A stretch of 64,000 bases of DNA from Flavobacteriales bacterium (GTDB lineage: Bacteria > Bacteroidota > Bacteroidia > Flavobacteriales_F > PHOS-HE28). This document shows, piece after piece, positions 6,141 through 6,296 of this stretch. A program made the position numbers and the translations under genes. Within the stretch, counting starts at the first letter, position 1. Each line of letters begins with the position of its first letter. The notes below the pieces were generated by a model. That model did not search any database, had not been told where the DNA came from, and saw only the letters and a program-made list of their open reading frames with translations. The stretch is from positions 148,634 through 212,633 of the forward strand of contig JBIIYP010000001.1 of NCBI GenBank assembly GCA_044346705.1, in the 5' to 3' direction.

Positions 6141-6252
6141 CGTTGCTCACCCCTCCCGCTCCAGCAGCCGGCCCAGCATTACCACCGGCACCAAGCCACA
6201 GGCCACGATCAACGAGGCGGACAGCGCGGCCTCGCTCCGTTGCTCGATGCGC
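6141..6252. repeat. att copy R2: duplicate of permease 3' end, fused on its right to an integrase fragment
   Basis: ctcacccctcccgctccagcagccggcccagcattaccaccggcaccaagccacaggccacgatcaacgaggcggacagcgcggcctcgctccgttgctcgatgcg matches permease 3' end up to about 110 bp. Confidence 0.8.
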
Positions 6253-6296
6253 TCCACCGGGCACCTGCGCTTTTCCCTGCAACGATCAACCCCGCT
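6250..6296 (-). pseudogene. Remnant of tyrosine recombinase gene (N-terminal codons only, ...GLIVAGKSAGARW)
   Basis: ctccaccgggcacctgcgcttttccctgcaacgatcaacccc is near-identical to 4368-4410 inside the intact recombinase (encodes ETGLIVAAKSAGARWS); breakpoint at shared gcg. Confidence 0.7.

Follow-up and report, generated by a model that had tools for sequence, protein, structure and literature searches.

Organization of the Locus

In the window (the whole stretch of DNA analyzed, 64,000 nt), an intact tyrosine recombinase gene, hereafter int, is flanked on its 5' side by an array of repeats of a permease gene end and on its 3' side by an integron-like cassette platform. The recombinase gene and the features of the 5' side are listed below; R1 to R4 are copies of the permease 3' end and E2 to E5 are islets of the array.

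3333-4508, minus strand: intact tyrosine recombinase gene (391 aa) encoding an extra N-terminal domain, a SAM_4 core-binding domain and a catalytic domain
4366-4426, minus strand: segment within the intact recombinase gene matched by the fragment described below (repeat search, blastn and 44-mer search)
4509-4551, minus strand: native 43-nt spacer from the permease stop to the int start, beginning in coding orientation with GCAACGATCATCCCTGCCCGTTACTTATCTT
4552-4627, minus strand: R1, the int-proximal permease 3'-end copy, 76 nt
4630-6052, minus strand: islet E2, between R1 and R2, with an AbiEii toxin gene (4630-5412) and an AbiEi-like antitoxin gene (5399-6052)
6147-6251, minus strand: R2, the last 34 codons and stop codon of the permease gene, 105 nt, 87% identity to the gene
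6249-6251: junction microhomology GCG, common to the permease repeat and int (repeat family D5)
6249-6309, minus strand: dead int-family remnant that corresponds to codons 28-48 of the N-terminal domain, is interrupted by a stop at codon 31 and stands in a frame different from that of either neighbour
6286-7227, minus strand: membrane-protein gene of islet E3, with family homology ending at 6310 (...NKFEKQLASE)
8070-8131, minus strand: R3, permease 3'-end copy, ~65 nt
8796-8945, minus strand: R4, permease 3'-end copy, 150 nt, directly abutting the stop codon of the AAA-ATPase gene
8947-10140: AAA-ATPase gene (islet E5, AAA-ATPase/DUF4143)
10236-11783, minus strand: functional ABC-transporter permease gene, source of the repeated 3' end

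Read in coding orientation, the array runs from the permease gene through E5, R4, E4 (a VapBC-like PIN pair), R3 and E3 (a DUF2141 gene and the membrane-protein gene), and continues with the fragment, R2 (105 nt), E2 (AbiEi/AbiEii), R1 (76 nt), the 43-nt spacer and int. All five copies of the permease end, including that of the gene itself, finish at the stop codon, with starting points particular to each islet, the lengths from R4 to R1 being 150, 65, 105 and 76 nt. Such direct repeats of a target-gene end, with one fixed boundary and lengths that differ from islet to islet, are those of an accretion array, and their arrangement fits the pattern expected when circles that bear a mimic of the target-gene end insert site-specifically (PMC5704250). 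R1 and R2 are 93% identical, and both are followed by GCAACGA just past the stop codon. The native spacer probably holds the int promoter. No permease-repeat copy was found beyond int. Between 4509 and 10235 there was neither an attI nor an attC, and the fragment was the only piece of int.

The four integrase-less islets in this interval (4509-10235) carry toxin-antitoxin or defence-type genes (AbiEii/AbiEi, PIN/VapB-like, AAA-ATPase DUF4143). At 4538-4558, the permease stop and the start of the spacer (GGGGTGA GCAACGA TCATCCC on the coding strand) form an imperfect 7-7-7 inverted repeat that resembles a tyrosine-recombinase core site, and islet E2 is homologous to the native sequence exactly as far as the end of the central GCAACGA.

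A Remnant of an int-Family Gene

The fragment at 6249-6309 is identical to 4366-4426 of the intact recombinase gene at 54 of 61 positions, with seven mismatches. A repeat search of the window retrieved it as repeat family D6, which pairs 6240-6309 with 4357-4426 (70 nt, 86%; blastn E = 1.2e-17), and its core, 6249-6292, matched 4366-4409 at 42 of 44 positions with E = 1.2e-15. When up to three mismatches were allowed, the 44-mer core occurred in the window only at these two sites, against 0.00 expected from 100 dinucleotide-preserving shuffles. The first-pass annotation had described this near-identity as about 40/44, slightly below the observed value, with coordinates that were right to within 1-2 nt, and its proposed check against chance similarity gave a clear answer (E of about 1e-15 to 1e-17; no match in 100 shuffles). 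Since 6240-6248 agrees with the permease at nine of nine positions and with int at six of nine, this stretch was assigned to the permease repeat R2, and the int-derived DNA is therefore confined to 6249-6309, that is, 61 nt including the GCG at 6249-6251.

Translated in the int frame, the fragment reads ..FP*GAGLIVAGKSAGARWSA and covers codons 28-48. The peptide quoted in the first-pass annotation is that of the intact gene; in the fragment itself, Tyr31 is replaced by a stop and Ala39 by Gly. The int frame of the fragment differs from the permease frame of R2 and from the frame of the membrane-protein gene. Among the best 120 int homologues, the peptide signature GLIVA-KSAGARW occurred only in the resident recombinase, in a 99% variant (P0001) and in an 82% relative (P0002), so that the source of the fragment was a gene of the narrow clade of the resident int; its attribution to the same integrase family as the intact gene is in this way upheld. 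Neither DNA nor protein searches of the 64-kb window found a second int-like piece besides this fragment.

Nucleotide similarity to a functional gene is thus significant and is accompanied by in-frame peptide similarity, while only codons 28-48 are left, with a stop at codon 31 and unrelated sequence at both ends. Judged on these sequence properties, the fragment is a genuine, non-functional remnant of an int-family gene, an ordinary scar of recombination and a routine molecular fossil that does nothing now. Its value lies in pointing to the neighbouring recombinase and in dating and ordering the rearrangements of one locus.

Three further signals around the fragment were inspected. An extension of the match by tblastn to int residue 24 (6314-6319, TGCATC) was rejected as a chance match, since these bases belong to the codons for ...QLASE, which is conserved in the membrane-protein family. 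A chimeric protein fused in frame was likewise discarded, the int, permease and membrane-gene frames being all different. A 36-aa ORF called at 6147-6257 on the minus strand (8252-8362 in locus L001), which follows the permease frame through R2 from a GVG-type GTG start inside the fragment and so crosses the joint between the two, is probably spurious.

Two Illegitimate Joints and the Neighbouring Islet

The fragment is bounded by two illegitimate joints. The first is the junction with the permease-derived repeat at a shared GCG, as already noticed in the first-pass annotation, where int codon 48 is linked to position 105 of R2; the flanking 12-mers, TTGCTCGATGCG in the permease and TTGTTCGTGGCG in int, are identical at 10 of 12 positions. 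The second joint, 6309/6310, shows a microhomology of at most 1 nt. It cuts ~10 C-terminal codons off the membrane-protein gene: in the family alignment, homologues extend into an acidic tail of ~10 residues that the copy in the window lacks, and its last seven codons and stop (6309-6286), ASLKERG*, are read from int-derived DNA in another frame. As the last gene of E3 is truncated at the joint, islet E3 and the fragment must have been brought together illegitimately.

The membrane protein has thousands of homologues, 75-81% identical and very widespread in Bacteroidota, whose genes sit among those for RNase R, LysE, FolB, GlnRS and MutS with no integrase nearby. In other Bacteroidota it is a housekeeping-type gene, and it shows no hallmarks of a mobile element. 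The islet as a whole (6286-7790, minus strand) is low-GC foreign DNA made up of the DUF2141 gene and the membrane-protein gene.

These data bear on the proposal of the first-pass annotation that the fragment is direct evidence that the islet at 6297-8060 once carried its own integrase. Intact int lies on the stop-codon side of R1, 43 nt away, and the fragment lies on the opposite side of R2. Because the native layout is repeat-spacer-int, an integrase owned by the islet would adjoin R3 and not R2; no integrase stands beside an att site of this islet in the usual layout of the family. The geometry, the second breakpoint, the housekeeping-type membrane-protein gene and the sufficiency of a duplication (see below) all speak against the fragment being such direct evidence, and the interpretation of the first-pass annotation is only partly supported.

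Conservation in the Population and in Related Loci

A 101-nt segment spanning both joints was found unchanged in 17 fetched loci, corresponding to 16 distinct contigs from many samples, so that the structure is real and fixed and is no assembly artefact. The array was identical in every fetched contig of the population, without polymorphism that would signal excision or integration. In a collection of metagenome contigs that does not include these samples, the exact repeat-spacer junction, which JGI contigs do carry, gave no match, and a protein-based scan returned only relatives of 65% identity or less.

In L087, whose int is 82% identical, the end of the ATPase gene, a 150-nt repeat, the spacer and int are contiguous, and E2 to E4 and the fragment are absent; the first 31 nt of the spacer (GCAACGATCATCCCTGCCCGTTACTTATCTT) are identical between this locus and the window. 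Locus L088 (int 75% identical) retains two degenerate permease-end remnants upstream of int, the permease gene itself being gone. These two layouts indicate that the repeat-spacer-int association is ancestral in the clade. Recombinases 73-75% identical to the resident one were found at different chromosomal sites, after a Zip gene (L089/L186), after OmpA (L091/L189) or beside the permease remnants of L088, and each relocated int lies 25-100 nt downstream of a co-oriented gene. From these different sites in sister lineages, it follows that the int-bearing platform relocates over evolutionary time.

A self-comparison of ~85 related loci at the DNA level disclosed an int fragment outside int only in L001, which represents the window's own population. 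A tblastn search of 86 loci with the int N-terminus gave, as extra matches, only tandem N-terminal domains inside long int genes; two tandem copies of this domain are present in some homologues (L028 10001-11698, L040, L072 and L076).

Direct repeats that bound an islet and end less than 200 nt upstream of int were observed in ~5 of 119 related loci, compared to ~1.3 expected, which hints that the position next to int is favoured for insertion. Small islets bounded by direct repeats of the terminus of the neighbouring gene lie right upstream of int in L009 (6520-7887), L012 (9291-9927) and L015 (3905-5752), the repeat of L012 being the 5' end (first ~25 codons) of a divergent neighbouring gene. 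Locus L112, where a repeat touches the int start, was set aside as an analogue, as it carries a simple intergenic repeat beside an N-terminally shorter int.

An Integron-like Platform Headed by a Xer-like Recombinase

The recombinase matches the Pfam families Phage_int_SAM_4 and Phage_integrase and scores above the NCBIfam cut-off of NF040815 ('tyrosine recombinase/integron integrase'). It falls below the cut-offs of the integron-integrase models (TIGR02249, 216.5 vs. 265; PRK15417, 158 vs. 435). When compared to VchIntIA (2a3v), residues 209-246, which form the IntI-specific additional domain around patch III, have no counterpart, and this domain is accordingly missing from the recombinase. 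Its best solved relative is an archaeal XerA-type protein. In terms of sequence, the enzyme is a Xer-like recombinase without the hallmark domain of IntI.

Its extra N-terminal domain of ~80 residues is followed by a low-complexity linker rich in Ala, Pro and Lys. The part of the intact gene equivalent to the fragment encodes the most conserved residues of this domain, L35, A39, W46 and S47 being invariant. The predicted fold of the domain weakly resembles the N-terminal DNA-binding modules of XPB and UvsW and the C-terminal one of MotA. In the literature searched, this recombinase family was not found described as an integron integrase, and integrons of Bacteroidota have been reported in general terms (PMC8618304, PMC9668308).

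The 3' side of int comprises the following elements.

3236-3254, minus strand: attI-like simple site immediately beyond the stop codon of int, reading GCGCTAAC CCGCA G|TTAGC on the coding strand
188-399, 1274-1420 and 2274-2422, minus strand: three attC-like sites, within 188-2422
2426-3190 (NADAR), 1421-2206 and 397-1248, minus strand: low-GC cassettes separated by the attC-like sites

The platform occupies positions 1-3254 of the window on the minus strand (11177-15210 in L001) and ends at a DEAD-box helicase gene just past the window start. All cassettes start with TTAxxxx, which in each case is the reverse complement of the R'' box that opens the cassette's own terminal palindrome; the pairs of cassette start and R'' box are GTTAGCGG/CCGCTAAC, GTTACCTG/CAGGTAAC, GTTACAAGC/GCTTGTAAC and GTTATGTGC/GCACATAAC. 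The attC-like sites are ~147 nt long and form long hairpins with folding z-scores of -2.5 to -5.9, and compensatory changes were seen in 17 of the 28 consensus pairs. A covariance model built from six sites detected in the whole window only the three sites at 188-399, 1274-1420 and 2274-2422, all on the same strand as int; the permease-repeat array yielded no match. In 44 related loci, with recombinases down to ~38-45% identity, every attC match outside the training set was located downstream of int and co-oriented with it. The GC content of the cassettes is 25-40%, compared to 60-70% for the host.

The content of the array varies among strains. Among contigs that agree in their Int protein fully or at 99% identity, at least five different cassette sets were found: NADAR/259/283/184 aa; a divergent NADAR/283/184 aa; DUF4262/VbhA...; NADAR/259/582 aa; and a single 220-aa gene. 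All the variants diverge exactly at ..CCGCAG|TTA, with a further break at the second ..AAC|G.. (~1284-1293). The variation was seen in L001-L006, L172 and L173. Many contigs end ~100 nt after int, and these ends look like assembly breaks at a variable array. Within the same population, the 3' cassette array is therefore strain-variable, whereas the 5' permease-repeat array is invariant in all contigs.

The attC palindromes have R''/R' ends (..AAC / GTT..), cassettes are gained and lost at attI with a G|TT crossover, and the recombinase family is associated with attC arrays across genomes. Taken on these sequence features, the platform is an integron in its architecture and population behaviour, headed by a recombinase that, at the protein level, does not qualify as IntI. 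Such a Xer-like recombinase heads a strain-variable attC-type array in high-GC Flavobacteriales and in many other Bacteroidota. If confirmed experimentally, this would call for a wider definition of integron integrases and would account for arrays that may at present be scored by the available tools as attC clusters without an integrase; we consider this platform with its non-IntI recombinase a more interesting result than the fragment.

Origin of the Remnant

The first-pass annotation had also placed the fragment within a model of successive integrations by related elements. The repeat array does fit successive site-specific insertions, and this support is independent of the fragment. As regards the resident recombinase, its role as an island integrase is not borne out, given that it has no outer att copy and that its demonstrable activity is integron-type cassette exchange on the 3' side.

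For the fragment itself, we favour a local tandem duplication of the native block followed by islet insertions and a replacement, a history that we consider to have about an even chance of being correct. The starting point would have been the native block, consisting of the permease 3' end, the 43-nt spacer and int. Replication slippage would then have produced a tandem duplication of ~285 nt, from permease position 105 to int codon 48, in whose product the permease end comes directly after int codon 48. The AbiE islet E2 would subsequently have integrated into the int-proximal repeat to give R2-E2-R1, and foreign low-GC DNA (the DUF2141 gene and the membrane-protein gene) would then have taken the place of the spacer and of codons 1-27 in the dead copy. 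The two microhomology sites are 281 nt apart in L087 and 288 nt apart by window coordinates, in the order that the duplication requires, and slippage over ~285 nt at a 10/12 match is mechanistically easy. As the polarity of the joint, int codon 48 and then the permease end, is the one expected from a tandem duplication, no second complete integrase is needed, and the second copy of int need not have been a whole gene, although there may have been a complete second integrase. Together, three site-specific islets (E5, E4 and E2), one duplication and one illegitimate insertion of E3 would account for the five repeat copies. The history takes three or four events, and no intermediate state of it was found. 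The flank of R3 shares with the native spacer only an 8-mer (p ~0.045, uncorrected), a weak remnant signal. The fragment differs at 7/61 positions both from the resident int and from that of L087, these two differing from each other at 3/61, and it has one state in common with each; this equidistance fits an old duplicate and, equally well, a third and independent lineage of int.

The same equidistance from two known functional lineages, together with the GGA at codon 32 common with L087, could also be read as the trace of a second complete unit (spacer, int' and possibly attI and cassettes) that once stood in tandem and of which two deletions left 61 nt, one running from int' codon 49 to R2 position 105 and the other removing codons 1-27 and the tail of the membrane-protein gene. 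The repeated insertions at one site seen in the array, the presence of the platform at different loci in related lineages and the well-documented decay and tandem accretion of integrated elements (PMC5704250) would suit this explanation. However, no further trace of int', attI' or attC was found in the array, the long deletion must have ended exactly at the 10/12 microhomology, and the membrane-protein gene of the neighbouring islet is not element-like. Furthermore, the resident int has no outer repeat copy, and there is thus no evidence that int units integrate via the permease repeat. A second complete unit is the main rival explanation, which we hold to be possible but less likely than not. 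It is still less probable, in our opinion, that a second int never existed and that ~58 nt were copied from the nearby gene as filler by template switching. A very short piece with two junctions, less than 2 kb from its template and with microhomology at one of them, is what such a templated patch would leave, but the 7/61 differences and the state common with L087 would require an old copy, the 6309/6310 junction has at most 1 nt of microhomology, and it would be left unexplained why a joint coincides with the site at which duplication of the native block would place it. That the 44-61 nt have been kept as a recombinase-binding or regulatory site of the att region is very improbable: although the core is 42/44 identical while the flanks decay, and it adjoins a recombination-related repeat, the equivalent segment of the intact gene encodes the most conserved residues of the N-terminal domain, R1, R3, R4 and the permease gene have no equivalent sequence, no int fragment lies outside int in the ~85 related loci, and no Rfam match was obtained. 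As for chance similarity, the GC-rich composition is all that could speak for it, and the blastn E-values of 1e-15 to 1e-17, the absence of matches in 100 shuffles and the clade-specific peptide in frame refute it.

Beside the tandem duplication, which remains our preferred history, a broader scheme can be drawn in which the recombinase would serve two sites, the attI/attC array on the 3' side and a gene end upstream of its own promoter, where islets without an integrase (AbiE, VapBC, AAA-ATPase) that bear a mimic of the gene end would insert next to int. The fragment would be a by-product there, for example of the use of the 10/12 pseudo-site inside int, and the N-terminal domain, whose fold has a weak resemblance to structure-specific DNA binders, would replace the missing IntI domain in reading folded DNA. 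We regard this scheme as speculative and unlikely. The invariant 5' islet array nevertheless raises the question of whether the same enzyme acts on double-stranded sites beside its own promoter.

Relation to Known Systems

In split integrases of the SSV type, attP lies inside the int gene, so that integration splits int. The N-terminal int piece directly beside an att copy is reminiscent of this arrangement, which was rejected as a model of the locus because the intact int has no more permease-like att sequence than the 10/12 microhomology, there is no complementary C-terminal piece and the resident gene is unsplit.

Tandem accretion of CIMEs, ICEs and IMEs at the 3' end of a target gene, and integrase remnants, have been described (Pavlovic 2004 and Bellanger 2011, as reviewed in PMC5704250). 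As in these systems, direct repeats of a target-gene 3' end separate integrase-less islets, and a dead piece of integrase lies inside the array. In contrast, the sole intact recombinase here is not an island integrase with attL and attR, as it has no outer repeat copy and heads an attC cassette array. The fragment and the intact gene are on opposite sides of their repeats, and the fragment can be accounted for by a local duplication.

Pseudogenes of intI beside clusters of attC sites (CALIN) were reported with IntegronFinder (Cury et al. 2016, PMC4889954). The locus shares with them a degraded integron-type integrase sequence near a cassette platform. It differs in that the intact gene is still present 1.9 kb away, and the remnant consists of 61 nt of the N-terminal domain and is situated on the side of int away from the cassettes.

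Finally, integrons in 'reverse orientation', in which the integrase is co-oriented with the cassettes, are typical of Spirochaetota (PMC9668308). The platform resembles them in its tyrosine recombinase, attI, single-gene cassettes, folded imperfect AAC...GTT palindromes, G|TT crossover and use of one strand. Unlike theirs, the recombinase described here lacks the IntI domain, scores below the TIGR02249 cut-off and carries the extra N-terminal domain of ~80 residues with its linker, and the attC sites are ~147 nt long and of the GTTAGC type.
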